Below, one piece after another: positions 78 through 31,441 of a DNA stretch of 64,000 bases (within the stretch, counting starts at the first letter, position 1; each line of letters opens with the position of its first letter). The notes beneath the pieces are model-generated. The model saw only the letters and a program-made list of their open reading frames with translations. It made no database searches and was not told the origin of the DNA. A program made the position numbers and the translations under genes. The stretch is taken from NCBI RefSeq assembly GCF_003334385.1, contig NZ_QOWN01000018.1; one strand, given 5' to 3'. Source of the stretch: Escherichia coli (GTDB lineage: Bacteria > Pseudomonadota > Gammaproteobacteria > Enterobacterales > Enterobacteriaceae).

Positions 78-421
78 GTGCCTGGCACACGCGTTTGATG
101 GAAGACGGCGTTCAGGCAATGCGCGATTATCTTGCCGGACTGGATATCGCTTCGCCAGAGCATCAGGTTCTGATGAACGTAACAGCAAAAAGCGAGGTCG
201 CTCCGTCAATTATCAAAGAAAATCTCTCATTACACTTAACTCATACGGTGAAATGGACTGAATCTCTCGATACATTTCTGAATATGCCAACCCCGGTAGC
301 TTTCCTTGAAATAAGTAATAAGCCCTATTTGGGGAATATGTTAAATGATTTTGCTGGCGTGGATCAGCAACGAGTTATGCATTGTCGTAAAGCATTTAGT
401 GATGCAAAGGTATTCAAATGA
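62..421 (+). pseudogene. ymdE: ymdE-like gene remnant (C-terminal fragment of an acyltransferase-type protein) truncated at its 5' end by IS3
   Basis: 119-aa ORF abuts the IS3 end and its first codons are IS3-derived; sits immediately upstream of ycdU as in K-12. Confidence 0.5.
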
Positions 422-1404
422 TTCCTGATTATTTAACTTTTATTCGCTTTCAGGATAAACGAAATCTGATATACATTTATGCTATTGGACTTATTCTGAT
501 AGGCTTTTATTGGAAGAATGCAGGGTTTACTTTTCCATCAGAGGATATTGGTGTAGTTAGTGGGATTCTGGCTCTGGTGCTGTATAATTTTATTTTTGAT
601 CTCAAGGCGTACTGGGCTTATAAATGCGTCACGAAGAATATCGATTTTTCGTGGTTTAAGAAAAAGCAGAACCACAAAATAGAATTATTTCTTACACAAC
701 CTCTGGTGGCAGGATTTCTGTCGTTAATCATGTTGAGTGCAATGAGTTGGGGGCTATACCAGCTTCTACCCTCGTTATATGCGCTGTTCCTGATTTCGTT
801 ACTTGGGCCGTTGGTCATCTTTCTGCTGTTTCGGATGATCCGCACCAGTTATGTCAAGCAGGTCGCTATTTCAGTAGCGAAAAAAGTAAAATATAAAAGT
901 CTGACTCGCTATGTGCTGCTTTCGGTGTGCATCTCAACGGTTGTTAACCTGCTTACTATCAGCCCGTTGCGTAACAGTGATTCTTTTGTGACAGAGGGGC
1001 AGTGGTTAACGTTTAAATCGATAATTGCATTGCTCATTCTTTGTGGCGTAGTGTTGGCGATTAATCTGTTTTTTCTGCGCTTCTCCAAGCGGTACGCTTT
1101 TCTGGGCAGGCTTTTTTTGCAGGAAATCGATCTGTTTTTCTCCAGTGAAAATGCGTTGTCGACCTTTTTTGCCAAGCCGCTTTGGCTTCGGTTATTCATA
1201 TTGCTGGTTATTGAAGTGATGTGGATTACGCTGGTGTCGGTATTGGCAACGCTTGTAGAATGGCGGATTTGGTTTGAAGCCTATTTTTTACTCTGCTATG
1301 TACCGTGCTTAATTTACTATTTTTTCTATTGTCGATTCCTCTGGCATAACGATTTTATGATGGCATGTGACATGTATTTCCGTTGGGGGCATTTTAATAA
1401 GTGA
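418..1404 (+). CDS. ycdU: inner membrane protein YcdU (multi-pass, unknown function)
   Basis: 328-aa ORF, strongly hydrophobic with multiple predicted TM segments; position between ymdE and serX. Confidence 0.8.
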
Positions 1405-1535
1405 GGAAGTGATAGGAAGTGACCAGATAATACATATATGTTCTGTACTCTCTTGCGCATTTTGATTGTTGACTGAGTAACCAGACAGTTGATGTGCACG
1501 ATTTCCCCTCGCCCTAACAGACGTGGGCGGGGGCA

Positions 1536-2158
1536 CCCGGTGTGTGCAATATACGAAAAAAAAGCCCGTACTTTCGTACGAGCTCTTCTTTAAATATGGC
1601 GGTGAGGGGGGGATTGACTCGCTTCGCTCGCCCTGCGGGCAGCCCGCTCACTGCGTTCACGGTCTGTCCAACTGGCTGTCGCCAGTTGTCGACCCCCGGT
1701 CGGGGCTTCTCATCCCCCCGGTGTGTGCAATATACGAAAAAAAAGCCCGTACTTTCGTACGAGCTCTTCTTTAAATATGGCGGTGAGGGGGGGATTGACT
1801 CGCTTCGCTCGCCCTGCGGGCAGCCCGCTCACTGCGTTCACGGTCTGTCCAACTGGCTGTCGCCAGTTGTCGACCCCCGGTCGGGGCTTCTCATCCCCCC
1901 GGTGTGTGCAATATACGAAAAAAAAGCCCGTACTTTCGTACGAGCTCTTCTTTAAATATGGCGGTGAGGGGGGGATTGACTCGCTTCGCTCGCCCTGCGG
2001 GCAGCCCGCTCACTGCGTTCACGGTCTGTCCAACTGGCTGTCGCCAGTTGTCGACCCCCGGTCGGGGCTTCTCATCCCCCCGGTGTGTGCAATATACGAA
2101 AAAAAAGCCCGTACTTTCGTACGAGCTCTTCTTTAAATATGGCGGTGAGGGGGGGATT
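1536..2158. repeat. Perfect tandem repeat, 181-bp unit x about 3.4 copies, each containing a copy of the last 19 nt of tRNA-Ser plus the tRNA terminator hairpin
   Basis: Identical 181-bp units begin at 1536, 1717, 1898 and 2079; the last copy merges into the genuine serX 3' end; motif TGGCGGTGAGGGGGGGATT recurs at period 181. Confidence 0.9.
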
Positions 2159-2227
2159 CGAACCCCCGATACGTTGCCGTATACACACTTTCCAGGCGTG
2201 CTCCTTCAGCCACTCGGACACCTCACC
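2140..2227 (-). tRNA. serX: tRNA-Ser (anticodon GGA)
   Basis: Reverse complement is GGTGAGGTGTCCGAGTGGCTGAAGGAGCACGCCTGGAAAGTGTGTATACGGCAACGTATCGGGGGTTCGAATCCCCCCCTCACCGCCA, an 88-nt class II tRNA with long variable arm and encoded CCA. Confidence 0.92.
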
Positions 2228-2421
2228 AAATTGTCGTTCCTGTCTTGCTGGAACGGGCGCTAATTTAGGGAAATCATGACCTGAGGTCAACAAACTTTTT
2301 GAAAAAATCGCGCGTTTATTCAAACTTCAATCAATGTGTGGTTTTAATAAGCGAAATCTGCTTTTTTTGCCACCGACCACGGATTTGTTATGCTGGTGGC
2401 CTTTGTAGATCATAACGATAA

Positions 2422-3399
<978 letters not shown>

Positions 3400-18838: not shown

Positions 18839-19887
18839 TCAGTTCGATACCTGGGGTATTCGACGACGACGTAGACTGTTCCATGAATAGACTGCGTTGA
18901 ATAACACTACGCCAGCGGTGACGAGAAATACCGCTCTGAAACCGTAGTTCGCTGAAATCGCTGCTCCCATCAATGGTCCGGTAACGTTGCCAATATCACG
19001 AAACGATTGGTTATAGCTGAAGATACGCCCGGCGATCTGGTTGCTCGAGTTGTAAACCAACAGTGTCTGTACGGCGGGGAGTAGTGCACCATCGGCGGCA
19101 CCGAGCAAAAAACGTAAAATCCCAAGTTGCAATGGCGTCTGAACGTAAGACATTGGGATCAACAGCAGTACAGAAAAGATCAGCGCTGTAATCAGGATCT
19201 TTTCGGGTCCGATTCGATCGCCAAGTTTGCCGAGTCGTGGTGCACTTAGCAGAGCCGCCACGCCTGGCACCGAGGCGATCATGCCACTGATAAAGGCGAC
19301 GTTACTGACGTTACCCGCCAGTTCGCGGACATACAGCGTCAGAATGGGGGCAATTGAGCCCGTCGCCACCTGGATGATTAACGTAGTGACAAACAGGCTG
19401 AGTACCAGTTTCGGGTTTTTAAGTGATGTCACCACTTCCCGCATGTGCAGCATCTCTTTTTTGCTGACCGGCTGGAATTTTTCTCTGATGCAAAACAGGG
19501 TGACGAAAAAGCAGAGTATGAGCACACTGGCGGTAATAAAGAATACCGGACGTAAGCCGTAGCTATCGGCGAGCAGGCCGCCAGCCATTGGGCCGAGCAA
19601 CGCACCACTAACGCCGCCTGTGGAGAGCGTACCCAGCGCCCAGCCGCTTTTATTACGCGGTACTTGTGTGGCGATAAGAGCATTAGCGTTGGGGACAAAT
19701 CCGCCAAGTAACCCAAGAAGCGCCCGCAGGATCAAAAACTGCCAGATATTTTGTGCCAGCCCCATCAACACCATCACGATGCCCATGCCGAGGGCAGAGC
19801 GTAATAGCATGAGTTTTCGGCCTTTACGGTCGGCGAGTCCACCCCAAAACGGTGAGGCGATGGCCGAAAATAAAAATGTAATGCTGA
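18839..19887 (-). pseudogene. mdtG: mdtG 3' fragment (C-terminal about 350 codons of MFS efflux transporter MdtG), separated from its 5' end by the inserted element
   Basis: Reading frame of the 323-aa ORF continues upstream without an ATG to 19887, where MdtG-like sequence (..[17 protein letters not shown]..) is interrupted. Confidence 0.85.
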
Positions 19888-20289
19888 TATTTGTTCCCTA
19901 AATACACCATGAGAACATACCTGTTAATAACAGGACAATATCAGGTGAATGATTATGCAATTCAACGGTGTTTTTCCAAGTATCTAAGCAGTTTTACACA
20001 GATTCTATGCAGTATCGGTATAGTCTCTTTTTAGCATAACTTATTGATATCTATAAAGAATCTGTGAAGTCTCTTTTCAGGGTAAACTGTATCGTGTTAG
20101 TCGTCCCTCTCTCGACTCCTAGAAAAGTGCTATATACAGGGCTATATAACGATATATAGATAGTTGGTCACATGGTGTAACTATCAAGAAACTTAACGAT
20201 TTCCTACGTGAAAGTTAGAAAGTGATGGTTATAGTTACCCTCCTAAAATCTTCATAGCTCCTTCATAACCAGTCTTAAAAGGACTTCCT

Positions 20290-20404
20290 TATGAGACACT
20301 TTCAACGTAACGGTAGAATGCACCTTCCAAGTGTCTCATAAGCTTGTTTTTGAATTATGAGACAGCTAAACTTATGAGACCAACTTTTGAGACTTCTTAG
20401 GGGG
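20290..20404. promoter_or_regulatory. res-like cluster of resolvase-type half-sites (TGTCTCATA, matching TGTCYNNTA) overlapping the promoter of the small serine recombinase gene
   Basis: TATGAGACA at 20290-20298 and inverted TGTCTCATA at 20332-20340; further direct copies at 20357-20365, 20373-20381 and partial at 20387-20394, ending just 5' of the RBS/ATG at 20409. Confidence 0.55.
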
Positions 20405-20408
20405 ATGT

Positions 20409-20957
20409 ATGGCGGTGATTGGTTATTGCAGGGTATCAACACAAGACCAGACTGTAGACAACCAGAAACTACAGATAGAGAAGGTTCACAAGGTCGATAA
20501 ATGGTTTATTGATGAGGCTGTCTCAGGAGCTACAAAGGCCACCAGCAGAGATGGTTTTAGAGACATGATGAACTATGTAAGGTGTGACGATACGTTAGTT
20601 GTGGTAGCTATTGACCGTTTAGGGCGTAATACCGTTGATGTGCTCTCTAACGTGGAGGCACTACAGACTAAAGGTGTGAGGGTTGTTTCTCTACGTGAAG
20701 GTTTCGACTTATTAACACCAATCGGTAGAGCAATGCTTACTATGATGGCTGGTTTAGCTGACCTTGAAAAAGACCTTATCAGTGAACGTAGAAAGGCTGG
20801 TATTGAACGTGCTAAAGCTGAAGGGGTTCACATGGGGAGACCTGTAAAAGCTTCTTCAGAGACTGTAAAGATGCTTATCTCACAAGGTAAAACGAGGTTG
20901 CAGATTCAGGAAGAGCTAGGAATCTCTAGAGCAACTTATTACAGACTTGCTAAATAA
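20409..20957 (+). CDS. small serine recombinase (resolvase/DNA-invertase family) with C-terminal HTH
   Basis: 182 aa; N-terminal catalytic motif VIGYCRVSTQDQ (active-site Ser), resolvase core, C-terminal HTH LGISRATYYRLAK; RBS GGGGGA upstream. Confidence 0.85.
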   Translation: MAVIGYCRVSTQDQTVDNQKLQIEKVHKVDKWFIDEAVSGATKATSRDGFRDMMNYVRCDDTLVVVAIDRLGRNTVDVLSNVEALQTKGVRVVSLREGFDLLTPIGRAMLTMMAGLADLEKDLISERRKAGIERAKAEGVHMGRPVKASSETVKMLISQGKTRLQIQEELGISRATYYRLAK

Positions 20958-21300
20958 GTTACTGAATAGTTACATGGATGTAGCTGATATTTGGCTTTTT
21001 TGCAAAGGGGGTCACATAGCTGGTGTGACGGGTACTTAGCAGGTATAGACCTGTGATAGATATTTTCGAAGATTCGGGGAAGATGAGATTCAAAGAGGGC
21101 TAGTCATTTTTTATAAAAATTTTCAGAATCTGAAAAGTTACTGTACAGAATATATACAGACATCTTTAAAGTATCTGTAAAGACTTTTAAGATAAAAGAT
21201 AGATATCCAGAAAGGATATCCGTTTAGAAAGACTGTTAAGTATCTCTTAAAAGAGAGTAAACCTTGTCAATAGTGATTGCAATAAAAATTTTTATTTCTT

Positions 21301-21963
21301 ATGTCAATTGAGCATATTTTAATCGGGAAGCATCATGGGGGTTCTGATTACTGGAGAACTCCATTTTTGTTATTTAAGAATCTAAACTGTGAATATATTT
21401 TCACGCTGGATGGTGCTGCAACTAAGCACGATACGTTATTACCCCGCTTTACGGATGATATTCACAATCAATCGTGGATTGGCGAAAGGGTGTTCTGTAA
21501 CCCGCCGTACAGCGATATTCCGTCGTTCCTCATAAAAGCGTCTGAGGCAGATTTAGCGGTATTCCTGATACCGTATAGAGCCAACACCAGCTACTGGCTT
21601 AGGCACATTTACAGCAATAACCACTGTCATGAAATCCGTATTCTTCATCGTGCAGTTAAATACCTTCCACCAGCAGGCCATAACGGGCTTACTATTCGTT
21701 CACCGTTTCCAAGTGCAGTCATTGTTTTTAAAAAAGAACCACGCAGGCATGAAATTACGCAGATGATTTGCTGTGCTGATACATTGCTACCGTTAACCAT
21801 CATTAACAGAGGAGGCTTAAGAGGAAGACCCACCATTTACCCACCTGAGACGCTCGACAGCTTCATAAAACTATACAGGCAAGGAAAACCCATTAAGTGC
21901 ATTGCAGATGCTCTCAGAATGCCTCTGAGCACGTCATACAGGATTGCGCAAAGGTTGAGCTAA
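21301..21963 (+). CDS. phage-type DNA N6-adenine methyltransferase (Dam/T1-like family) with C-terminal HTH-like extension; orphan (no cognate nuclease recognised)
   Basis: 220 aa; motifs DYWRTP, FTLDGAA and catalytic CNPPYS (NPPY), ...FPSAVIVF; extra C-terminal approx 70 aa with HTH-like segment. Confidence 0.75.
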   Translation: MSIEHILIGKHHGGSDYWRTPFLLFKNLNCEYIFTLDGAATKHDTLLPRFTDDIHNQSWIGERVFCNPPYSDIPSFLIKASEADLAVFLIPYRANTSYWLRHIYSNNHCHEIRILHRAVKYLPPAGHNGLTIRSPFPSAVIVFKKEPRRHEITQMICCADTLLPLTIINRGGLRGRPTIYPPETLDSFIKLYRQGKPIKCIADALRMPLSTSYRIAQRLS

Positions 21964-22325
21964 AATTCTCATAAATATGGTCATTTACAAGACAGGTGAT
22001 TCAGATATTAAGAAGTATCCCTGTGAACAATAAATGACCAATCAGTAATTATTCTGTGAAATAATTGTTGCAATTTATAATCACATCTGTTATAGTTTCT
22101 ATATGGGCTGATAAAAAAGTTCATGTCTTGAAGTGGTAACACTTGGGGAGGTGTCAGATGGTTGGCGTATAAAACCTCTCATTCATGGTATACCTCAGCG
22201 TTTTAATCATCGTACTGTTTCAGGCATGGACTTCTTTATCAGTCCATCAATCCCCCAGATATTTTAATCACACAGGCTAATCGGTTTTATCCGGTTGGCC
22301 TTTTCACATATGAGGTATTTTATGA

Positions 22326-23294
22326 ATGAAAAAAGAAACTAATGCTTTTATTATGGTAGATAAACGAGTTGCACAATTCCCTAAAACATTAAAGCCAATT
22401 GACCGCTTGGTATATTTCACTATGCTGGATGGTGCTGATTATTACGAATCTAAGTTCGGGAGATATGCACCAAGTATTGACTATTTGATGGTTATGTCTG
22501 GTGCTACACGTAATACAGTTATTGACTCTCTGAAAAGACTTGAGTCACACAGGCTTATTGAGAAGACCAATATCAAAGGGCAGCAAAGTATTTTTAAAGT
22601 ATTCACGTTAGATGAGCGTCCAGAAGTCTTATCAGAACCTACCCTTGATGAGCGTCGTAGAGTCAAATTATCAGGTCAACCAGAATCTGACACTAACCCA
22701 ACCAAAAATTGGTTACCTACCCAACCAGAATTTGGTTACCTACCTAACCAGAAATTGGTTACATGTAATACTGAATATAAAGACAAAAATATAAAAACTA
22801 AAGAAGAAAGACTAAAAGGGAACTTTGAAGAAGAATCTCTTAAGAAGGGAGCTTCGCTCTGTGATTCACATGAATGTGATATTAAAGAAGATGACTTTCT
22901 TTCTTTGGATGAATTAAATGATTTTCTCTCTATGAATGAATCTGACCTTGATAGTGAAGCTACTAAAGAGGTCGTTAAAAAGGAAGATAAAATCTCTGAT
23001 GTGATTGCTAGTAGTGACCATAAAAACACACAGTGCCCCGCCACTGATGATGAGATGGACCCCTTCGATGATGATGAAGAGGATGAAGAGTCAGAACGTG
23101 AAAAAGCCATTAAGAGGGTAGAGAAGAAAAAGAGATTCGAGCTTGCAAGACAAAAGAACAAAGTATCGGGTTTAGACCCATTCGATGACAGTGAAGATGA
23201 TTATTATCTTTCACCGAGAAAGAAACAAACCCAGGATGACAAGAAGCAAAAAATTAAACCGAAGATGTATTTTGCTGGTGGAGGTATGCGCTAA
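22326..23294 (+). CDS. putative replication initiator (winged-helix N-terminal domain, acidic C-terminal tail) with origin-like iterons embedded in its coding sequence
   Basis: 322 aa; N-terminal winged-helix-like region; internal DNA iterons plus AT-rich tract resembling the lambda O/ori arrangement; C-terminus very rich in D/E. Confidence 0.55.
   Translation: MKKETNAFIMVDKRVAQFPKTLKPIDRLVYFTMLDGADYYESKFGRYAPSIDYLMVMSGATRNTVIDSLKRLESHRLIEKTNIKGQQSIFKVFTLDERPEVLSEPTLDERRRVKLSGQPESDTNPTKNWLPTQPEFGYLPNQKLVTCNTEYKDKNIKTKEERLKGNFEEESLKKGASLCDSHECDIKEDDFLSLDELNDFLSMNESDLDSEATKEVVKKEDKISDVIASSDHKNTQCPATDDEMDPFDDDEEDEESEREKAIKRVEKKKRFELARQKNKVSGLDPFDDSEDDYYLSPRKKQTQDDKKQKIKPKMYFAGGGMR
22676..22820. 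repeat. Origin-like iteron array (3-4 direct repeats of about 23 bp, each containing the palindrome AACCARAAWTTGGTT) followed by an AT-rich tract
   Basis: AACCCAACCAAAAATTGGTTACCTAC / CCAACCAGAATTTGGTTACCTAC / CTAACCAGAAATTGGTTACATG at 22695-22765, partial unit at 22677-22693, then AT-rich 22766-22820. Confidence 0.65.
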
Positions 23295-23584
23295 TGAGAG
23301 AATATAACGGTGAAAAACGATACAAAGATTATCTATTAAGGCGCTACAGCATTTCTCGTGAAGGTCATCTTCTGAAAGATACTCATGGGGAGGTTTACCG
23401 GATTCGACCGAAGAAGGAAGGAAAGAATTATTTCTTTTTTGATGGTGTGACAGATTTAAAGATTGACGCTTTGAGGTTTGCAGTGCTGTATCATTATGAT
23501 ATCTGGGATTCGGTCCACCAGCTACGATTAAAAGACGGTGACCCCGGTAATCTGAGGGCCACCAATATCATCACAAAACGTTAG
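23294..23584 (+). CDS. small protein, possibly degenerate HNH/NUMOD-like; function unknown
   Basis: 96 aa; start overlaps stop of upstream gene (TAATG); C-terminal segment LRLKDGDPGNLRATN loosely resembles HNH_3-type motifs. Confidence 0.4.
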   Translation: MREYNGEKRYKDYLLRRYSISREGHLLKDTHGEVYRIRPKKEGKNYFFFDGVTDLKIDALRFAVLYHYDIWDSVHQLRLKDGDPGNLRATNIITKR

Positions 23585-23903
23585 TTTGTTTTACCATCAT
23601 CAATCGTAATTGTGATTTCATATTTGAAAAGCTTAATGCTGAAATTGAATCGTGTACTTTTGGCGATAATCATTTTTAAAAGCTGATACACCAGAAGCAC
23701 CAGAAACACAAAGCAACCTAAGCTTGCGAATCTGTGAGATTCAGCAATTGTTTCAAGAAAGCCCATTAATTCCCCTTATTTATCAAAGGGAATGACCTGT
23801 ATCAGCCCCTATAACCATAATATCATGTAAATGAGATGTTGACAATATGTTAAATAAATGTTAAGATTGTAGTATGAGTAAGAGATTTAAGGAGATTTTT
23901 ACA

Positions 23904-24194
23904 ATGACTCACACAGTTACGCGCCTTTTGCCAGAGGCATTTGAACGACTGGCAGCAATCAAAGCCAAATACCCTGATATGAAGCACACGGCGCTTGTTG
24001 GAGAGCTTTTAAAAGAGTCGGTAGCCCTGACCCCTTTCGATAACGTTAAGGGCGTTGCAGAGGGTTCTAAGGCCATCAGAATCACAACAGGCCAACTGGA
24101 ACTACTCAAAGCGCAGTCCGCAGTAGCAGGTTGCTCAATGATTCAGGTGTTAAGCACTAAGGTTCATCAACTGGCGGATAAATTGGAGGTTTAA
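23904..24194 (+). CDS. hypothetical protein, possible ribbon-helix-helix DNA-binding regulator
   Basis: ORF track 23874..24194; the internal ATG at 23904 is preceded by RBS AAGGAG; predicted beta-strand/helix pattern (TVTRLLPEAFERLAAIKAK). Confidence 0.45.
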   Translation: MTHTVTRLLPEAFERLAAIKAKYPDMKHTALVGELLKESVALTPFDNVKGVAEGSKAIRITTGQLELLKAQSAVAGCSMIQVLSTKVHQLADKLEV

Positions 24195-24580
24195 TGTATG
24201 ACTTTTATAAACATCGTGACCATTTGGTAAGATTTGACGGTAGAGTCTGGAAAGACATAACAGAAACCAATAAACCCAAGTTTACCCACCAGCAATTAGC
24301 CTCAAGATTTGATATCTGGACTGAAGCACAAAAAGATAATGGTGATTTCGAGTTTATCAGGGGTTTTGATTATGCTTACGAAGATGACCTTAAAGACGCC
24401 ATTAAATTAATTGAAAATTTTAATGGAAATAATTCTGGTGACAAACACAAAGCCAATGGTAATCGGTATGACAGGGAGTTAATTCTTGATGCCATTTCCA
24501 GAGGTCAATCACAAAGTTATATTTCTGAGAAATACGGCTTATCACGTAGTCAATACTACAAGATTAAAGCGTCTGTGTAA
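24194..24580 (+). CDS. hypothetical protein with C-terminal HTH (regulator or terminase-small-subunit-like)
   Basis: 128 aa; start coupled to upstream stop (TTAATG) with RBS GGAGG; C-terminal HTH ISEKYGLSRSQYYKIKA. Confidence 0.5.
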   Translation: MYDFYKHRDHLVRFDGRVWKDITETNKPKFTHQQLASRFDIWTEAQKDNGDFEFIRGFDYAYEDDLKDAIKLIENFNGNNSGDKHKANGNRYDRELILDAISRGQSQSYISEKYGLSRSQYYKIKASV

Positions 24581-24717
24581 GCCTGTGAGAATGAGTGAGA
24601 CTCAAAGATGAGCTACCCTATTACTAAGGTGTCTCACTCCCTCTGTAACCCGCATGGTTACTGGCCTCAGAATGGCTATTTTGGCAGATTTAAGATGTGT
24701 TTTAGAGGAATTTAAAA

Positions 24718-25041
24718 ATGAACAACTTCCCATTACAAATTTTCGTTGATAACGACACCGCTCTGATGATTCAGGCTTTCACTGATTCCGGTGTATCAAT
24801 TGACTTTGACAGGCTGTTAGAGTTGATGGCTGATAATGCAGAAAACATCTCTGACTTTATTCAGTCGGTGGAGTTTAACGAGCCTCGAATGATGCTACCA
24901 ATTAAAGACAGCAACATGAAAAGATTGGTTATCGAGCAAACGAACAAATACAGCGTTAGCCCTGAAAGATATCTCAAGGCAGCTATAGCAATTTTGTGCG
25001 CTGACAATATTTTGGTGACGGATTCGAAGGTGGTGCATTAA
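24718..25041 (+). CDS. hypothetical protein
   Basis: 107-aa ORF with RBS AGAGGA; no recognisable motif. Confidence 0.45.
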   Translation: MNNFPLQIFVDNDTALMIQAFTDSGVSIDFDRLLELMADNAENISDFIQSVEFNEPRMMLPIKDSNMKRLVIEQTNKYSVSPERYLKAAIAILCADNILVTDSKVVH

Positions 25042-25118
25042 TGGGCTTAATAATTGCTTGGACAGCTTTGGGTTTATTTGTTGGTTGCTGGGTAGGTAAC
25101 ACAGTAAATAAGAATTGA
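25041..25118 (+). CDS. candidate small hydrophobic peptide (25 aa, single predicted TM helix), translationally coupled to upstream ORF
   Basis: ATG overlaps upstream TAA (TAATGG); encodes MGLIIAWTALGLFVGCWVGNTVNKN; below the size cut-off of the ORF track. Confidence 0.3.
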   Translation: MGLIIAWTALGLFVGCWVGNTVNKN

Positions 25119-25535
25119 TGTTGCCAATCTGTTAAAAAGCTGTTGACAAATAACCTTAAGCATGACATAATTTTAATTATGGGAGAGTAATTCTCTCTTA
25201 TATTTCTTTCAATAATCCGATGGATGGATGGATATTCTGAGTTGGTGAGGTATGTTCTATACCGAACATTCTGAAAGGTGCAATGCTTTTCGCTACATGA
25301 CCTCTTATATAACCTGAGAGGTCATCTCGAAAAGTACTCTTGTTCATTCGTTATTGAATCCTTTAGATGTTTTAATTTCTTCACCTTATGAATAGCCCTT
25401 TATAAGAAATTATCTAGGGCTATTCAGTTTTTAAAAAGCATACTTGGCAAACCGCCTTTTAAGTCTCTTCTAAGTTCGTAGGCTGTCAGGTGTGCTTTTT
25501 AAAAACTGAATATACTTAGAAGAGGAAATGAAATA

Positions 25536-26246
25536 ATGGCAAATGACATTTATATTAGTGGAAGAAAAATTGATAGCTTCGGTGACTGGTCGCCACAGAC
25601 TGAACATCCAGCTATCGTTATTCAGCGTAAAGAACACGATGCGAGAATTGAGCTTGAGCAAGAGCTAAAGATGTCACCAAAGCAAATTACCTTTGTGTCT
25701 CCTGAGCCTCAAGAGATGCCTGATGTATGCAAGAGTGAAGCATTGCTTGAGCTTGAAAAGAAATATTTCCCAGCTTTAAAAGCACAGCGTCTTAGATTAG
25801 ATGACGCTTACAGCAAAGTTACCCTGATGCAATCAGCTATTGAACCGTCAGAATTTGAGATTCAGGATGAATTGTCACAGAAACCATTTGTTTATTACCA
25901 ATATGCAGACAATGATGGTTTTGGTACTTTTCCTGAGAATATCCCAGACGCGATTAGTAGTCTTCCTGATGGATATCGAATTGTGAAGATGGTTAAAGCT
26001 TCAAGGGGTGCTGGTCAATTTATTTATATGACCAATAAGAGCGATGAAGAACTCGCTGAACTTGCTAGACAGAACATCTTGGCATCACGTAACAAGCAGC
26101 TTGATAGTGCTAAGTTGTATCTCTCAAGAGAGCTTCAGGCTATGAAAGAGCTTGTTAGTGAATATGAGTCGCAGAAGAAGATTGCTATGCAAGCTGATAT
26201 TGAGCAGTTAGTGAAGATTTCTCAGAAGTATAGTAAAGCACTTTAA
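25536..26246 (+). CDS. hypothetical protein with C-terminal coiled-coil
   Basis: 236-aa ORF with RBS GAGGAAA; no recognisable catalytic motif. Confidence 0.5.
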   Translation: MANDIYISGRKIDSFGDWSPQTEHPAIVIQRKEHDARIELEQELKMSPKQITFVSPEPQEMPDVCKSEALLELEKKYFPALKAQRLRLDDAYSKVTLMQSAIEPSEFEIQDELSQKPFVYYQYADNDGFGTFPENIPDAISSLPDGYRIVKMVKASRGAGQFIYMTNKSDEELAELARQNILASRNKQLDSAKLYLSRELQAMKELVSEYESQKKIAMQADIEQLVKISQKYSKAL

Positions 26247-26270
26247 TTATGAATTAAGAAGAGGTGATTA

Positions 26271-26480
26271 ATGTTTGAAGAACGTTTAGAGACTATTCGG
26301 TCTGTTTGTGAAAACTTAAAGTTACAAACCAAGCCAGCCTTAAGAATTAAAACCAAACATCAAATTATCACCTCACACAAACCAAAAACACGCAAGATTC
26401 CAAAGTGGTGTATTGACCGTATTCCTTCTGATGCTCAAATCATAGGTGAAACGGAATTACATTATCTTGTCCGACATTAA
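26271..26480 (+). CDS. hypothetical small basic protein
   Basis: 69-aa ORF with RBS GAGGTG. Confidence 0.4.
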   Translation: MFEERLETIRSVCENLKLQTKPALRIKTKHQIITSHKPKTRKIPKWCIDRIPSDAQIIGETELHYLVRH

Positions 26481-26577
26481 AAATTGGTTGGGTAAAATCA
26501 ACGGGAGAGATTATCGAGTGACATCGGTAGTTTCTCCTTTTTTTGTATATGAACACTTAAGAGGTGAAAAAATATGA

Positions 26578-28749
26578 ATGGCACAGTTTAAAGTTGATGA
26601 TTTTCTGATTGAGCTAGGTTTTAACTCTCAGAGGGTTTTAAAAGGTCTGGAAAAAGCCGAGAAACAAACGATGCAGGTAGCATCACGAATTGAGAAGCGA
26701 TTGAATAAAGCTTTTAAAGTTAACCCTACGCCTTTAAATGATTCTCTCAAGGTCATGGAAAGAAATGTCGATAAAACTGTTTCCAAGATTGAGCAGCGTC
26801 TTAAAAACACTAAAGCGTTTAAGATTAAAACGGAAATTGAGGATACTTTAAAGCCACTTAAACAACCGAGACAGCCACGAATTAGCGGCAACAGAGCAAT
26901 CACAGCAGCACATAGTGTGAATATGTCTAAGCTTGGTGATATTAATCCGCTGATGGCTAAAATGTTTAAAGCACAGTATTACAGCTTAAGCGGTAAGGCT
27001 GGTAATATTGGAAGTGAAAAGTTTAACGCTGAACTTGCAAAATTAAATCAATCTCTTCGTGAAACGTTGAATAAACTCAGGTCACAGACAAAGACCGCCA
27101 GCATCAGCAAAGTAAATGATTCCTTTAATAATCTTGCAAGCAATGCAATTAAGTTATCTGGTGCATTTTACTCTGTGATGGGTGCTCTTAACGCTTACAA
27201 GGCCATTATGAATGCAGGTCTTAAACGAGATTCCGCACAGAGAGCCGCTAAGTTTGTACTTGGTGATAAAGCATCTGAAGCTGAAACATTTATCAGGGGA
27301 CTGGCTGACAAGACAGGTCTTAATATCTCTGAAGGACTATCAAGCTACGCTAAGTTTGCAGCAGGTGCTCAGGGTTCTATGTCACAGGAACAGACACAGG
27401 AGCTATTTGGTAATGCAACGGCTATGAGCCGTTTAATGGGGCTTTCTAACGATGAACTAAACGGCATTTTGAAAGCTTTTGAGCAGATGGCTTCTAAGGG
27501 CAAGATTCAGGCTGAAGAATTACGTGGGCAGTTAGGTGACCGTATGGCTGGTGCATTTAAGCTATTCGCTGAAGCATTGGGTATGACTGCTACAGAGCTT
27601 GATGCAGCCATGAAAAACGGGAAGGTACTTTCCGCTGATACTCTCCCTAAAGTCGCTAAACAGATGGGCTTGATGATTGATAAAGCGGGTGGCTGGGCTG
27701 AAGTCGCTAAGAGCACCCAGACAGCTTTAGGTAAGTTAGCAAACAACTGGGATGATACGATGGTTAAAATCTTCTCAGGTTCACAGGATGAGTTAAACGG
27801 CTTCTTATCCAGCCTGGGTAGCCTGCTTAGTGAAATGGGGATGAGTTCTTCTATCGCTGGTGATGCTATCGGTGGACTTATCGACATGCTTAAAGCTGGT
27901 GTAGATGATATTCGCGTATTCAATAACACCATTGAAGGCTGGATTTTACAGGTTAAAAAGTTCTATTACAGCCTTGATGACACTAAACGAAAACTACTTG
28001 ATGAAGTCGGTGATGGTTTTATCAATTTTGTCAAAGGTCTTGCTATAGCGTTATCTGCAAAGACGCTATTCAGTGCCACTACAGGGGTGATGAACCTGAC
28101 AAGAGCAATCACAACGTTAGGTACAAGAGCTAATCAGGTGGCTGGTCAGGTAACTACTGGTAAAGGTGGTGGAAAACTGAAAGGTGTAGCTGGTGGTGTA
28201 GGTAGTGCTCTTGCAATTGGTTATGCTGATGACGGTTATGAAACAGCGTTAGCATTAGCTTCAATGATTCCACAAATCAGAGGTGTCACCCTTGGTTTAT
28301 ATGCATTGAAGAAAGCACTGGATTTTATGAATCAGGAAGTAGTCAAAAACGCTAATATGCATCCATCTGGGGTAGGTGTGGGTAGTGACTTTAATCCTGT
28401 GTATTCTGGTGACCCTAATAAACCGAATATGATTAACGAAGGATGGAGTAAAATTTTTAATTCAATGGGTGAATTGTTTAACAATGCCACAATGAATATT
28501 GCAAGATTCAATCATCCAGAATTAAACAACATTAAGCAAGATTCAGCATTAACGAGTGCAGATATTCAGAGTCTGAGGGATGAAATTAGTGCTTTGAGTA
28601 AACGTATTCAGGAGCCTGTGAAAGTTTCACTTGGTGGTGAAGTTGCCATTAAACCAGATGAAACCAGCTTTATGACCTTTAGCAGTAATATCTACGACCA
28701 ATATGCAGAAGCTACGCTATTAAGTTCATCATTCCCAGAAGATGATTGA
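26578..28749 (+). CDS. phage tail tape-measure-like protein
   Basis: 723 aa; coiled-coil N-terminal part; segment AEELRGQLGDRMAGAFKLFAEALGMTATELDAAMKNGKVLSADTLPKVAKQM resembles the conserved tape-measure N-terminal domain; Gly-rich middle. Confidence 0.65.
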   Translation: MAQFKVDDFLIELGFNSQRVLKGLEKAEKQTMQVASRIEKRLNKAFKVNPTPLNDSLKVMERNVDKTVSKIEQRLKNTKAFKIKTEIEDTLKPLKQPRQPRISGNRAITAAHSVNMSKLGDINPLMAKMFKAQYYSLSGKAGNIGSEKFNAELAKLNQSLRETLNKLRSQTKTASISKVNDSFNNLASNAIKLSGAFYSVMGALNAYKAIMNAGLKRDSAQRAAKFVLGDKASEAETFIRGLADKTGLNISEGLSSYAKFAAGAQGSMSQEQTQELFGNATAMSRLMGLSNDELNGILKAFEQMASKGKIQAEELRGQLGDRMAGAFKLFAEALGMTATELDAAMKNGKVLSADTLPKVAKQMGLMIDKAGGWAEVAKSTQTALGKLANNWDDTMVKIFSGSQDELNGFLSSLGSLLSEMGMSSSIAGDAIGGLIDMLKAGVDDIRVFNNTIEGWILQVKKFYYSLDDTKRKLLDEVGDGFINFVKGLAIALSAKTLFSATTGVMNLTRAITTLGTRANQVAGQVTTGKGGGKLKGVAGGVGSALAIGYADDGYETALALASMIPQIRGVTLGLYALKKALDFMNQEVVKNANMHPSGVGVGSDFNPVYSGDPNKPNMINEGWSKIFNSMGELFNNATMNIARFNHPELNNIKQDSALTSADIQSLRDEISALSKRIQEPVKVSLGGEVAIKPDETSFMTFSSNIYDQYAEATLLSSSFPEDD

Positions 28750-28905
28750 TTTAACGGTGTTCTACGTGAATAAAGCAAAGTTAATACCCGCACTAAAAAT
28801 TATTTTTTACGTAGCACACGCTTAACAGAGAAAATACTTATATATCAAAGGCTTGGTTAAAAATGATTAAAATACACTAAGCCTTTGAAATCAAAGGAGA
28901 ATTTA

Positions 28906-29694
28906 ATGATTTACTCTAATCAACTTCGTTACAGTGGCAAAGATGGTGTTTACTTCCATCTACAAGGCCAACCAGATAATTTCTTGTCACTATCAGCAAC
29001 AGAGAACATGGAATTTGACAGCCCTATGATGGTGACCACTCAAAATATGCAATCAGGGCAGACTGTAACAGATAATGTAATGCGTTCACCCAGAACTATT
29101 TCAATCAGTGGTGTGGTTGTAGTTGGTGAATCCGGTAGTATCCTCATCTCAAGAGATAATAAGCTGGTGGAAAACTTCATCGACACTCTTGAAAGCTGGC
29201 GTGACCAGAAGCAAATTATTTCGGTCATCTGTAAAGACGGAATTAAAATTGATGATTCTATTATTACGAGTTTTAAAGCCTCTAAAGATGTTGGTATTTC
29301 AAATGGTCTAAGAGTCCAGCTAACTTTTCAGGAAATTAACTTTAAAGCAATTGTAGGGCAAACTGATGTTTCAGCAGCTACTGGCAAAGCTGCCACCACG
29401 AATGACGGTGGTGTGACCAGTAAGAAGAATGCAGGTAACGTGACCACTGAACGCAATAACGCGCCTATGCTATCGTGCAAAGAGTTAATGAATATTAGCG
29501 ATGTATCCGGTTACGTTCCGGCTATCAGAAATGATATTCTCGATGCTCAGATTAAGTGCAATAAAGCTTGGAAGCTGGACTATTCAGACTTAACAGAAGC
29601 TGAAAAAACCAACGTCACCAATGCTAATAGTAACGCTGGTCGAGTAGCTTCAAAGCTTAAAAAGTACTCAGTGAATCCTAATAAGAGATACTAA
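28906..29694 (+). CDS. hypothetical protein downstream of tape-measure gene (possible tail-associated protein)
   Basis: ORF track 28885..29694; ATG at 28906 preceded by RBS AAAGGAGA; gene order after the tape-measure gene. Confidence 0.45.
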
Positions 29695-31220
29695 ATCTCT
29701 ACTACATCAACATCTATTAAACCCCTCTCAGTGACTTCAGAAAGCGACTGTATAGCCTCTGTAACGTTGTCTGAGGGGTTTTCTGTTATAGGTAGGTCAA
29801 TTACCTTGCCGTTGTGAAAAGTCACTTTACAGCGACGTTTAGCGGCATCTATAACTATTTCTTTGAGTACGCCCTTGATAAGTAGCTGTGTCTCTATCAT
29901 CCCTTCCTTTGTTGTCCTGTCAATATCTTTGAGGCTTCCAGTTGTGATGGCCTTTATCCGCTGTGTTTCCTCTTCGATATCATGATTGAGTTTTGATAGC
30001 GCATTCTTCATATCACGTAATTTCTCTGTGATAATTGTCATGTCATCGAGTTCAATAGCGAGTTCTGCCATTTTTGAGATTTTACGCTGCAAATCTTCAC
30101 GCTGTAATTTAAGGCTATCAATAGTGTCAGTATTTTCAGTTTCAAAACGGTCGCATAATGCGAGCATGTAGAGAATAGTTGCATCCGTTTGCTTACGACT
30201 GATAGCCTTTGCACTACACCTGTTAGCTGAACGATTAGGGCATCTGTACATCCCAAAACGTTTTAAGGCATATCCACCAAGAACAATAGTAGCCCCACAC
30301 TCAGAACATTTGATGATACCCCTGAACAAGTTGACTGATAGCGGATTACTTGATACAGAAGCCCTACCATATTGCCCTGTGTTCAGTTGCTGTACTCGAT
30401 AGAATAGTGACTCACTGATTATTGCGGGGTAGTAACCCTGAACTTCTTCACGTCCAGCAGGTGTGAAACATCCAATCACAGCACGATTTCTGAGTAGTTT
30501 CTTTACAGCAGTATCAGACCACCCCTTTTGTTTGGGTGTGTATTGATTCAATGACAAGTGGCCTTCATCGTTTAAAGTTCTGGTGATAGCCCAAAAGCTT
30601 AAACCCTGTAATCTCAGGTCAAATGCTCGTTTAACAACTTCCACTTTATCGGGGATGATAGTGAATGTTCGACGGTCATCATTCAGCCTTAACCATGCAG
30701 GACAACGCCTAGATACCTTGATACCTTCGGAGATGAGTTCTTTTTTACGGTTCCATGCAGCTTGGACACGCTCAGACTTCCTCAGACTTTCCTCATGCGC
30801 CCGCTGCATTATCAGAATGCTTTTAATCAGGGATAACGGGTCTTTTAAACTTTCTCGTGTGTAATGTTCACCATCGGACAGGGTGACTACATCTACACCA
30901 GCCCTTAAGATACGGCGTAATAGCTCAGAAGCAATATCAATATCCTGACGTGACAGACGGTCTAAACTCTCGATTAGTAGCGTATCACCAGCTTTAACAA
31001 GCCCTTTCTCGATAGCGGTTAGAAAGTCACCTAGACCACCTTTCAGGTGCTTACCACTAAAAGCACTTTTCCCCAAATCTTTAAAGCTCAAGGATGAATC
31101 CAAGTAAAACTCAGGGTTCTTATCAAGCCAGTCAGTAACCAGCTTAGATTGTCTGCGTACAGAGTCCCCTTTTAGTTGTCGTTCACTTGAAAATCTGATG
31201 TAGCTGATTGCCCGTCTCAT
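29691..31220 (-). CDS. large serine recombinase (serine integrase)
   Basis: About 510 aa; N-terminal resolvase-type catalytic domain ([12 protein letters not shown], active-site Ser), recombinase domain, zinc-ribbon-like Cys cluster (CSECGATIV...CPNRSANRC), C-terminal coiled-coil; first ATG at 31220, track start at 31226 is TTG. Confidence 0.88.
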
Positions 31221-31243
31221 ATTCAATACCTAAAATGATGTGT

Positions 31244-31441
31244 TTAGGAACCCATTATACTGAAGACAATACCGGACCACATATTCAGGGCGGAGTGACC
31301 GGTAACGCCAAGCTGCTCAACGTAGAGGGGTAAGAAGGGCATTACCAGACTGAAGGCGGCACCGGTAAGAAAACAGCCTAGCCAGGCGACGATCAGGTTT
31401 CGTTTCCAGTTTATAGGGGTGTCATTTTCACAGGGTGACAT
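31244..31441 (-). pseudogene. mdtG: mdtG 5' fragment (N-terminal 58 codons of MdtG fused to 7 element-derived codons before a stop)
   Basis: Starts [16 protein letters not shown]... as MdtG; sequence diverges at the junction near 31260. Confidence 0.85.

Follow-up and report, generated by a model that had tools for sequence, protein, structure and literature searches.

A candidate replication origin within an initiator-like gene of an Escherichia coli chromosomal island

Background

Replication origins that lie inside the gene of their own initiator are textbook knowledge for phage lambda and are also known for RepA_N plasmids; the principle is thus not new. Here we describe an initiator-like gene with a candidate origin of this kind, which resides on an island in the chromosomal mdtG gene of Escherichia coli. 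It was studied in a stretch of 64,000 nucleotides (contig NZ_QOWN01000018.1 of RefSeq assembly GCF_003334385.1), the whole of which we call the window. Three groups of initiators provide the obvious points of reference. In the O/ori modules of lambdoid phages, the classic pattern is the exchange of the N-terminal domain together with the iterons as one unit, while the C-terminal part is shared. In RepA_N plasmids, the origin reportedly occupies the middle of repA, and each lineage is said to have a C-terminal domain of its own. Rep_3 initiators (RepE, pi, RepA of pPS10) act at iterons beside an AT-rich unwinding element; they lack an enzymatic domain, and the host helicase is recruited by protein contacts.

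A fourth system is PLE, a phage satellite of Vibrio cholerae. Its replication requires the replisome of a virulent helper phage, its RepA initiator is helicase-less, and its origin lies in a non-coding region. PLEs have been reported only in V. cholerae (PMC10085698). The structure 4RO3 represents the N-terminal domain of PLE RepA (Barth et al., PMC7145576).

What we consider new in the present case is the protein family. It joins a PLE-RepA-like domain, a lambda-like candidate origin inside the gene and a disordered acidic tail, and it has no known helicase-recruiting domain. A profile search of 1.84 billion protein cluster representatives yielded no more than 159 relatives; the family is narrow. 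The family has no name of its own and is annotated merely as "helix-turn-helix domain-containing protein".

Results

Repeats and an AT-rich tract inside the gene

The open reading frame (ORF) is a mosaic, in which a specificity module (N-terminal domain, repeats and AT-rich tract, reaching to about position 22822) is joined to an acidic C-terminal half. We consider it likely, judging from the features described below, that this ORF encodes the replication initiator of the island and that the candidate origin lies within the same gene.

Tandem repeats were called by two independent tools, a repeat finder and TRF. The array at 22673-22764 consists of four units of about 23 bp in phase, three of them near-perfect and one degenerate. 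The three tandem 23-bp copies at 22696-22764 share 87-100% identity with the reference copy (TRF score 113; consensus ACCCAACCAGAAATTGGTTACCT), and each unit is a half-palindrome centred on an A-tract. The exact core AACCARAAWTTGGTT occurs three times in 64 kb, always within the array. When up to two mismatches are allowed, there are seven matches per 64 kb, compared with 0.8 expected, and none of 100 shuffles reaches seven. The degenerate unit is nearer to the consensus in another allele (L024) than in the window. The array directly abuts the least stable 40-bp duplex of the 11.4-kb island, at 22766-22806 (z = 3.2 by nearest-neighbour energy), despite the fact that this segment is coding; the content of guanine and cytosine (GC) across 22760-22819 is 0.217. 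An Rfam scan over the island gave sub-threshold chance matches only.

A first-pass annotation, made from the letters of the sequence alone, had described three to four direct palindromic repeats of about 23 bp in this gene, an AT-rich stretch right behind them and an organization like that of the lambda O gene and its ori. All three descriptions hold, with coordinates accurate within a few bases, and the position in the gene agrees with lambda near base for base. Its further picture of a winged-helix-like N-terminus and of an Asp/Glu-dominated C-terminal half unlike that of lambda O is borne out by the structure prediction, composition and comparisons given below.

The repeats are a signal at the level of DNA and not a peptide repeat. 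The four copies of the window are translated in frames 1, 2, 1 and 0 into the unrelated peptides QPESDT, PTKNWL, QPEFGY and NQKLVT, because the period, which is 22-24 bp across all types of the array described below, is never a multiple of three. This frame analysis rules out the pure peptide-motif explanation, which the first-pass annotation had itself named in its account of what would overturn its proposal. Overlapping coding constraint accounts for the degeneracy of some copies. In the array of type B (core TGACAAAATGTCA), TGACA would create a stop codon in the sole copy that is read in frame 0, and this copy reads AGACA; one of the spacings, moreover, measures 22 rather than 23, by which frame 0 is avoided. 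The number of repeats is constrained by the reading frame in the same way, since gain or loss of one copy results in a frameshift: strain AHS8C65RI (L018 327-1315) has four perfect copies (+23 bp) and two annotated ORFs in place of the one gene, and strain 90-3040 (L005 1428-2346), which has lost one copy (-23 bp), has a gene marked as frameshifted in its annotation.

Natural alleles exchange the domain and the repeats together

We surveyed 5,426 complete E. coli genomes and fetched selected loci (labelled L0xx). The region was found in 151 of these genomes. Many of the blastn matches cover just the upstream DNA and the portion of the gene from about 22822 on. The alleles are built accordingly: the C-terminal half is common (70-95% nucleotide identity), whereas the module in front of it, which comprises the N-terminal domain (the first ~115 codons), the repeats and the AT-rich tract, varies as a unit and has at least three types (A, B and C). 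The consensus given above belongs to type A, the type of the window; type B repeats read GACAAAATGTCAYCAsTACCAGT with a period of 22-23, and type C repeats read ACCCACTGAGTCAAAATTCTTT with a period of 22. In all three types, about four copies with dyad symmetry around an A-tract occupy nucleotides ~347-437 of the gene and are followed by an AT-rich tract specific to the type. Within type A, nucleotide diversity is low in the domain (0.028), the repeats (0.031) and the AT-rich tract (0.049) compared with the C-terminal half (0.21). Such co-variation of the repeats with the N-terminal domain is the pattern expected if this domain binds the repeats.

The same layout recurs in distant full-length relatives. 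Three of them (L011, L012 and L015, ~21-23% identity) have about four repeats of their own, 22-24 bp long, at nucleotides 380-505 of the gene, and the lowest-GC 40-mer of each gene lies directly 3' of the repeats. An AT-rich tract follows the repeats in six of six types. As judged from these sequences, there are at least six types of presumed domain/repeat specificity and a single architecture. This comparison of alleles and relatives is our chief line of evidence.

The N-terminal domain

The AlphaFold2 (AF2) model, computed with an alignment of 73 sequences, places a winged helix of several helices and a two-strand wing at the N-terminus. Its confidence (predicted local distance difference test, pLDDT, averaged over blocks of 10 residues) is 94-98 for aa 11-100, 93 for aa 101-110 and 86 for aa 111-120. 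It falls to block means of 46-63 from aa ~121 to ~250, a part that covers the segment encoded by the repeats and the AT-rich tract.

Several searches assign this domain to replication initiators. PHROG families of replication initiators match the protein with E values of 5e-8, 1e-6 and 2e-6. The best match with a solved structure is 4RO3 of PLE RepA, both by profile (E 7.7e-6) and by fold (Foldseek template modelling score, TM, 0.66-0.70; 19-22% identity). The next Foldseek matches are the RepA_N initiators of staphylococcal plasmids (4PQL, 5KBJ, 4PT7), one of them a complex of Rep with its iteron; here TM is ~0.58-0.60 over the whole N-terminal domain with 12-13% identity, and weak profile matches span aa 5-96. 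Several viral proteins among the fold matches carry annotation as replication initiators. The resemblance to lambda O is more remote in terms of identity: hhalign aligns the family with the lambda O profile over 79 columns (aa 4-84 of the window protein, aa 25-105 of O) with a probability of 88.8%, E 2.5e-6 and 8% identity. We are confident that the modelled domain is a winged helix of the initiator type; by predicted fold, its nearest relative is the group of RepA_N and PLE RepA and not lambda O.

Pfam is less telling. Its only match in the window protein is a weak HTH_36; over the 73 relatives, it finds HTH_36 in 51, DnaD_N in 13 and Phage_rep_O in one (E<=0.001). RepA_N is absent from the 20 Pfam families listed for these relatives, and Rep_3 is matched neither by the window protein nor among the families of the relatives. 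Searches of the initiator in NCBIfam and PADLOC and a single-sequence search of PDB produced nothing relevant.

The acidic C-terminal half

Residues 166-322 contain 29% Asp and Glu, carry a net charge of -17 and are predicted by AF2 to be disordered except for one helix. Neither BLASTP nor profile-profile comparison detects any similarity of this half to lambda O. Two D[PD]FDD motifs stand out. In the first, Phe is substituted in two of nine aligned alleles; around the second, L-D-x-F-D-D-S is invariant in nine of nine.

The single-stranded DNA-binding protein (SSB) of E. coli ends in the acidic-aromatic tip DFDDDIPF. A distant relative of our protein, P0143 (L011 10001-10858), encoded on an island of this kind that occupies the identical site, ends with DDMPEFDFDDVPF and thus has a C-terminal DFDDVPF. 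About one fifth of 100 listed relatives end in Phe or Trp, nine of them in P[FW], a count made by reading the tails and with no background rate beside it. These tails are a possible clue to how initiators that have no helicase recruit replication proteins; in the literature, we found no report of initiators that mimic the SSB tail.

The island

The window is a piece of E. coli chromosome, in which mdtG is split into two parts (18839-19810 and 31254-31440), interrupted at codons ...GIVFS|ITFLF... Imperfect inverted repeats, TTAGGGAAC and TTAGGAACC, lie just within both ends of the island. Its genes are a small serine invertase, a methyltransferase with a helix-turn-helix (HTH), the initiator, six small ORFs, a tape-measure gene, a Dit-like gene and a large serine recombinase (Table 1). 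The six small ORFs have no family match in Pfam or PHROG, and no helicase, primase or loader is recognizable among the genes of the island.

Table 1. Features of the island and of the initiator-like gene, in coordinates of the window
Feature	Coordinates	Strand	Basis
Host island, ~11.4 kb, in mdtG, 39.5% GC	19893..31253		Junctions read in sequence
Hin/Gin-type small serine invertase, 182 aa, left end of island	20409..20957		
Dam-family N6-adenine methyltransferase with C-terminal HTH, immediately upstream of the initiator	21301..21963	+	Family matches
Initiator-like ORF, 322 aa	22326..23294	+	ORF list; PHROG replication-initiator matches
Winged-helix DNA-binding domain, aa 1-118, predicted iteron-binding part	22326..22679	+	AF2, Foldseek, profile searches
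Iteron 0, degenerate, core AACCAGAATCTGACA at 22678-22692	22673..22695		One period 5' of iteron 1
Iteron 1, ACCCAACCAAAAATTGGTTACCT, core 22700-22714	22696..22718		Repeat finder, TRF, core count
Iteron 2, ACCCAACCAGAATTTGGTTACCT, core 22723-22737	22719..22741		Repeat finder, TRF, core count
Iteron 3, ACCTAACCAGAAATTGGTTACAT, core 22746-22760	22742..22764		Repeat finder, TRF, core count
AT-rich tract, candidate DNA-unwinding element, encodes a Lys/Glu/Asn-rich linker	22765..22820		GC and duplex stability
Acidic, mostly disordered C-terminal half, aa 166-322, common to E. coli types A-C	22821..23291	+	Composition, AF2
First DPFDD motif, aa 245-249, within EMDPFDDDEED	23058..23072	+	Repeat finder, allele alignment
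Basic helix, aa 254-278, EREKAIKRVEKKKRFELARQKNK, sole confident C-terminal helix	23085..23159	+	AF2 block means 83, 93, 82
Second D[PD]FDD motif, aa 284-288	23175..23189	+	Repeat finder, allele alignment
96-aa ORF, 1-nt overlap with the initiator stop codon (TAATG)	23294..23584	+	ORF list
Tape-measure protein, 723 aa	26578..28749	+	29% identity, full length, to Felixounavirus tape measures
Dit-like tail protein, 269 aa	28885..29694	+	~66% identity to the Felixounavirus gene adjoining the tape-measure gene
Large serine recombinase, 511 aa, presumed integrase/excisionase	29691..31226	-	phrog_95 5.9e-81; NCBIfam XisF/Ccr-like

Directly behind the initiator, a 96-aa ORF is probably translationally coupled to it, because its start overlaps the initiator stop by one nucleotide. 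This ORF has no Pfam or PHROG match and no signature of a helicase loader. It is kept beside the initiator in the E. coli alleles, and its position relative to the initiator is that of P relative to O in lambda.

An equal layout is found at yecE in strain Ec-U3 (L001), a close relative. The same mdtG site is occupied in an enterobacterium with 60% GC (L011), where identity of the initiator is ~21%; the homologous recombinase of this island consists of Resolvase, Recombinase and Zn_ribbon_recom domains. A larger relative adds genes for a tail chaperone, AbiTii and HNH. In L012 and L013 (15521-17154), AbiTii and HNH stand beside the large serine recombinase, which would fit a defence role for some members. 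In strain 2018-11-3CC (L009 1484-2520) and also in NC101, a type B initiator is followed by a truncated Dit-like pseudogene near lafU/flhA in the Flag-2 region; from its sequence, we read the L009 locus as the remnant of a deleted island at a third insertion site.

The left end of the island looks like a variable cargo region, because the invertase is replaced in Ec-U3 by an unrelated 306-aa hypothetical gene, and L011 and L012 have a resolvase in this region. We also considered whether the in-gene repeats are recombination sites of the hix/gix type for the invertase. This was rejected: their arms are 7 bp apart rather than 2, they co-vary with the N-terminal domain of the initiator, and the island of Ec-U3 keeps the repeats without the invertase.

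Relation to Felixounavirus

Beside its tape-measure and Dit-like genes, which are related to a syntenic pair in Felixounavirus (virulent myoviruses of the Felix-O1 type), the island has no genes for capsid, portal, terminase, tube or sheath. This gene content points to a possible satellite that disturbs the tail assembly of a helper or puts it to its own use. A second link concerns the tetranucleotide GATC. It is wholly absent from the island (19734-31390, 11.5 kb; 41-48 expected), so there is no clustering of it at the candidate origin either, and the flanking chromosome has it at the expected density. It is equally absent from the related islands of Ec-U3 (L001 6090-18300) and L011 (7100-18350). 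In a 34.5-kb sample of Felixounavirus JohannRWettstein (L017 1-34493), there is again none, compared with 114 expected; GC of this sample is 39.3%, next to 39.5% in the island. No such depletion is seen in the larger relative L012 (80 observed, 105 expected). Literature searches for such a satellite, of E. coli or of Felixounavirus, turned up no account of one.

Discussion

A model of initiation

The following sequence of events would combine these features. The four 23-bp iterons (22673-22764), half-palindromes centred on A-tracts, would be occupied by dimers of the winged-helix domain. The nucleoprotein complex formed in this way would then destabilize the adjoining AT-rich tract (22765-22820). 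The acidic disordered C-terminal half, with its two D[PD]FDD motifs, basic helix and conserved C-terminal end, might recruit a helicase or a replisome that the island does not encode. The source of this machinery could be the host, although an infecting virulent phage of the Felix-O1 type is more probable. Finally, once excised by its large serine recombinase, the island would replicate in the way of the Vibrio satellite PLE.

The first-pass annotation had suggested that the element replicates autonomously after excision. This part of it is unsupported, since no helicase, primase or loader is recognizable on the island, which shows features of a helper-dependent satellite. Replication that depends on a helper is, on the present sequence data, more likely than autonomous replication, because helicase, primase and loader are missing, the tail genes are related to Felixounavirus and GATC is absent as in the 34.5-kb sample of the phage. 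That the island as a whole is a helper-dependent satellite appears to us almost an even matter, slightly on the doubtful side.

Several observations weigh against the reading of this gene as an active initiator with its origin. All 159 of 159 E. coli copies are chromosomal, and no free replicating form is among them. Relatives are found neither on 72,556 plasmids nor in 50,697 phage records nor on IMG/VR contigs: blastn and tblastn searches of phages and plasmids gave nothing relevant, and a scan of IMG/VR with the family alignment gave 569 pattern matches, none of them confirmed. There is no DnaA box within the island, the first iteron is degenerate, and further AT-rich stretches exist in the intergenic DNA of the island. 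A hidden Markov model search, proposed in the first-pass annotation as a check, had a divided outcome; PHROG initiator families and, in 13 of 73 relatives, DnaD_N came up, and neither Phage_rep_O (PF04492) nor RepA_N (PF06970) of Pfam matched the window protein. The similarity of the D[PD]FDD motifs to the SSB tip, a resemblance of motif only, may serve as a lead on the function of the tail.

Alternative explanations

Each of these features could be viewed differently. The most trivial view would be that the repeats are a mere peptide motif or a functionless product of slippage. The number of copies does vary, by one more in L018 and one less in L005, and yet precisely these changes destroy the gene. 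Besides its refutation by frame analysis, this view would have to account for six unrelated repeat sequences that occupy the same place in the same number with dyad symmetry, and for type A repeats that are as conserved as the DNA-binding domain; we regard its probability as negligible. It is more plausible, although still very improbable in our opinion, that the protein is a packaging factor similar to a small terminase, with the repeats serving as an in-gene pac site like those of P22, SPP1 and Sf6 and the tail engaging the large terminase of a helper. Pac sites are commonly found inside small-terminase genes, a satellite would need a packaging gene that we do not recognize in the island, and an N-terminal HTH followed by a tail of partner-binding type would suit such a protein. 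The matches at the level of families are nevertheless all replication initiators, no terminase family appears in the results from Pfam, PHROG or NCBIfam, and the nearest solved folds are PLE RepA and RepA_N. Moreover, AF2 shows one winged helix and then disorder, without an oligomerization core, and four phased iterons that abut the least stable duplex are the anatomy of an origin.

The protein might likewise be a transcription factor or a centromere-binding protein, for which the repeats would be an intragenic operator or a partition site. Winged-helix regulators (MarR, SlyA, GntR) and TubR are indeed among the weaker profile and fold matches, and iterated sites are typical of partition centromeres too. 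We give this possibility as little credit as the preceding one: the island has no gene for a partition NTPase, a site 350 nt inside the regulated gene and always in front of the least stable duplex would be an atypical operator, the best matches are initiators, and the position equals that of lambda ori. A different kind of objection accepts the origin and the initiator as genuine and sees the island as a defence island or as what is left of a decayed prophage, no longer excised or replicated, with the tail genes as leftover cargo. Its permanent residence in chromosomes, never in phage, plasmid or virome collections, would be explained in this way, and so would the frameshifted alleles and truncated remnants (L005, L018, L009, L024) and the AbiTii and HNH genes of a relative. 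On the other hand, the order of genes is kept across genera and insertion sites with recombinase and initiator intact, many distinct alleles exist in the 151 genomes, and the 36-48 GATC sites expected in 11-12 kb are all missing, an argument for selection that still acts outside the chromosome. This objection thus seems to us unlikely. Decay is possible for individual copies, whereas the conserved gene order across genera and sites and the maintained avoidance of GATC argue for an active family.

A satellite of Felix-O1-type phages?

If the gene is an initiator with its own candidate origin, as we think likely, a broader proposal can be made tentatively. The island may be the first member in Enterobacteriaceae of PLE-like satellites that exploit myoviruses of the Felix-O1 type. 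According to this scenario, the element would integrate by its serine recombinase, fire from the origin inside the gene and hijack the replisome of helper or host by an acidic tail, through acidic-aromatic motifs like those of the SSB tail. Its own tape-measure and Dit genes would redirect the tail assembly of the helper. The swappable modules of domain and iterons might set groups of replication incompatibility or specificity among islands that circulate together. We put this forward as a conjecture which, taken whole, is somewhat more apt to fail than to hold.

The consequences would extend in several directions. Whatever the fate of the scenario, the six natural variants of specificity represent a ready-made swap system for recognition between initiator and iterons. 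Should the island prove to be a satellite of Felix-O1-type phages, the exploitation of virulent phages in the manner of PLE would reach beyond Vibrio cholerae to E. coli, which offers both genetics and phages (e.g. BASEL Bas63). It would also have a bearing on phage therapy and on the typing of Salmonella and E. coli with phages of this type.

Comparison with known systems

Membership in the families Phage_rep_O, RepA_N (as modelled in Pfam) and Rep_3 was rejected on absent Pfam matches; the likenesses are nevertheless instructive. As in Rep_3 systems, the iterons adjoin an AT-rich element and the initiator has no enzymatic domain. The gene differs from them in its single predicted winged helix instead of two, in the position of the candidate origin inside the gene, in the missing DnaA box and in the missing Rep_3 match.

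The RepA_N initiators of plasmids pSK41 and pTZ2162 (4PQL, 4PT7, 4PTA, 5KBJ) are the second-best matches by fold and have iterons of the same style. By the top Foldseek matches in PDB and by profile, the N-terminal domain has the winged-helix fold of RepA_N (DnaD-N-like). The repeats AACCAAAAATTGGTT of the window, TGACAAAATGTCA of type B and GTCAAAAnnnTTTGAC of type C were assigned to the style of RepA_N and PLE RepA. Unlike the RepA_N plasmids of Firmicutes, we deal here with a Gram-negative host, an integrated island, an acidic disordered C-terminal half and a protein that the Pfam RepA_N model does not match.

The organization of the gene is closest to lambda. In both cases, the initiator gene itself contains the origin (in ours, the candidate origin), placed where the N-terminal DNA-binding domain passes into the remainder of the protein. 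The annotated lambda iterons occupy nucleotides 349-433 of the O gene and the repeats of the window nucleotides 348-439 of theirs. Each array has four iterons at intervals of 21-23 bp; every iteron is dyad-symmetric about an A-tract, and an AT-rich tract comes directly after the array. Lambda iterons are read in frames 1, 1, 0 and 2, and the copies of the window are likewise read in several frames. Gene P overlaps the stop codon of O, just as the 96-aa ORF overlaps that of the initiator. The lambdoid exchange of domain and iterons as a single module with a shared C-terminal part is seen in the present family as well. The differences concern the protein and its setting: there is no match to Phage_rep_O and no similarity to O by BLASTP, the C-terminal half is acidic and disordered instead of a folded P-binding domain, no gene for a P- or DnaC-like loader comes next, and the gene resides on an 11-kb island that has a serine recombinase, rather than in a lambdoid phage.

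The protein and the element, in turn, most resemble PLE and its RepA. Induction, replication and transduction have been demonstrated for PLE, whereas the island is known here from its sequence alone; the PLE origin is non-coding, and the candidate origin of the island is inside a gene. PLE RepA is the best solved match of the N-terminal domain by both profile and fold. The island combines a large serine recombinase with a RepA-type initiator that appears to be helicase-less, the pair of traits that marks PLE-type satellites. In PLE, the initiator is devoid of helicase and primase activity and a large serine recombinase integrates the element; the island would, by its gene content, follow the same plan. 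Both possess semi-palindromic iterons with a poly-A centre beside AT-rich DNA.

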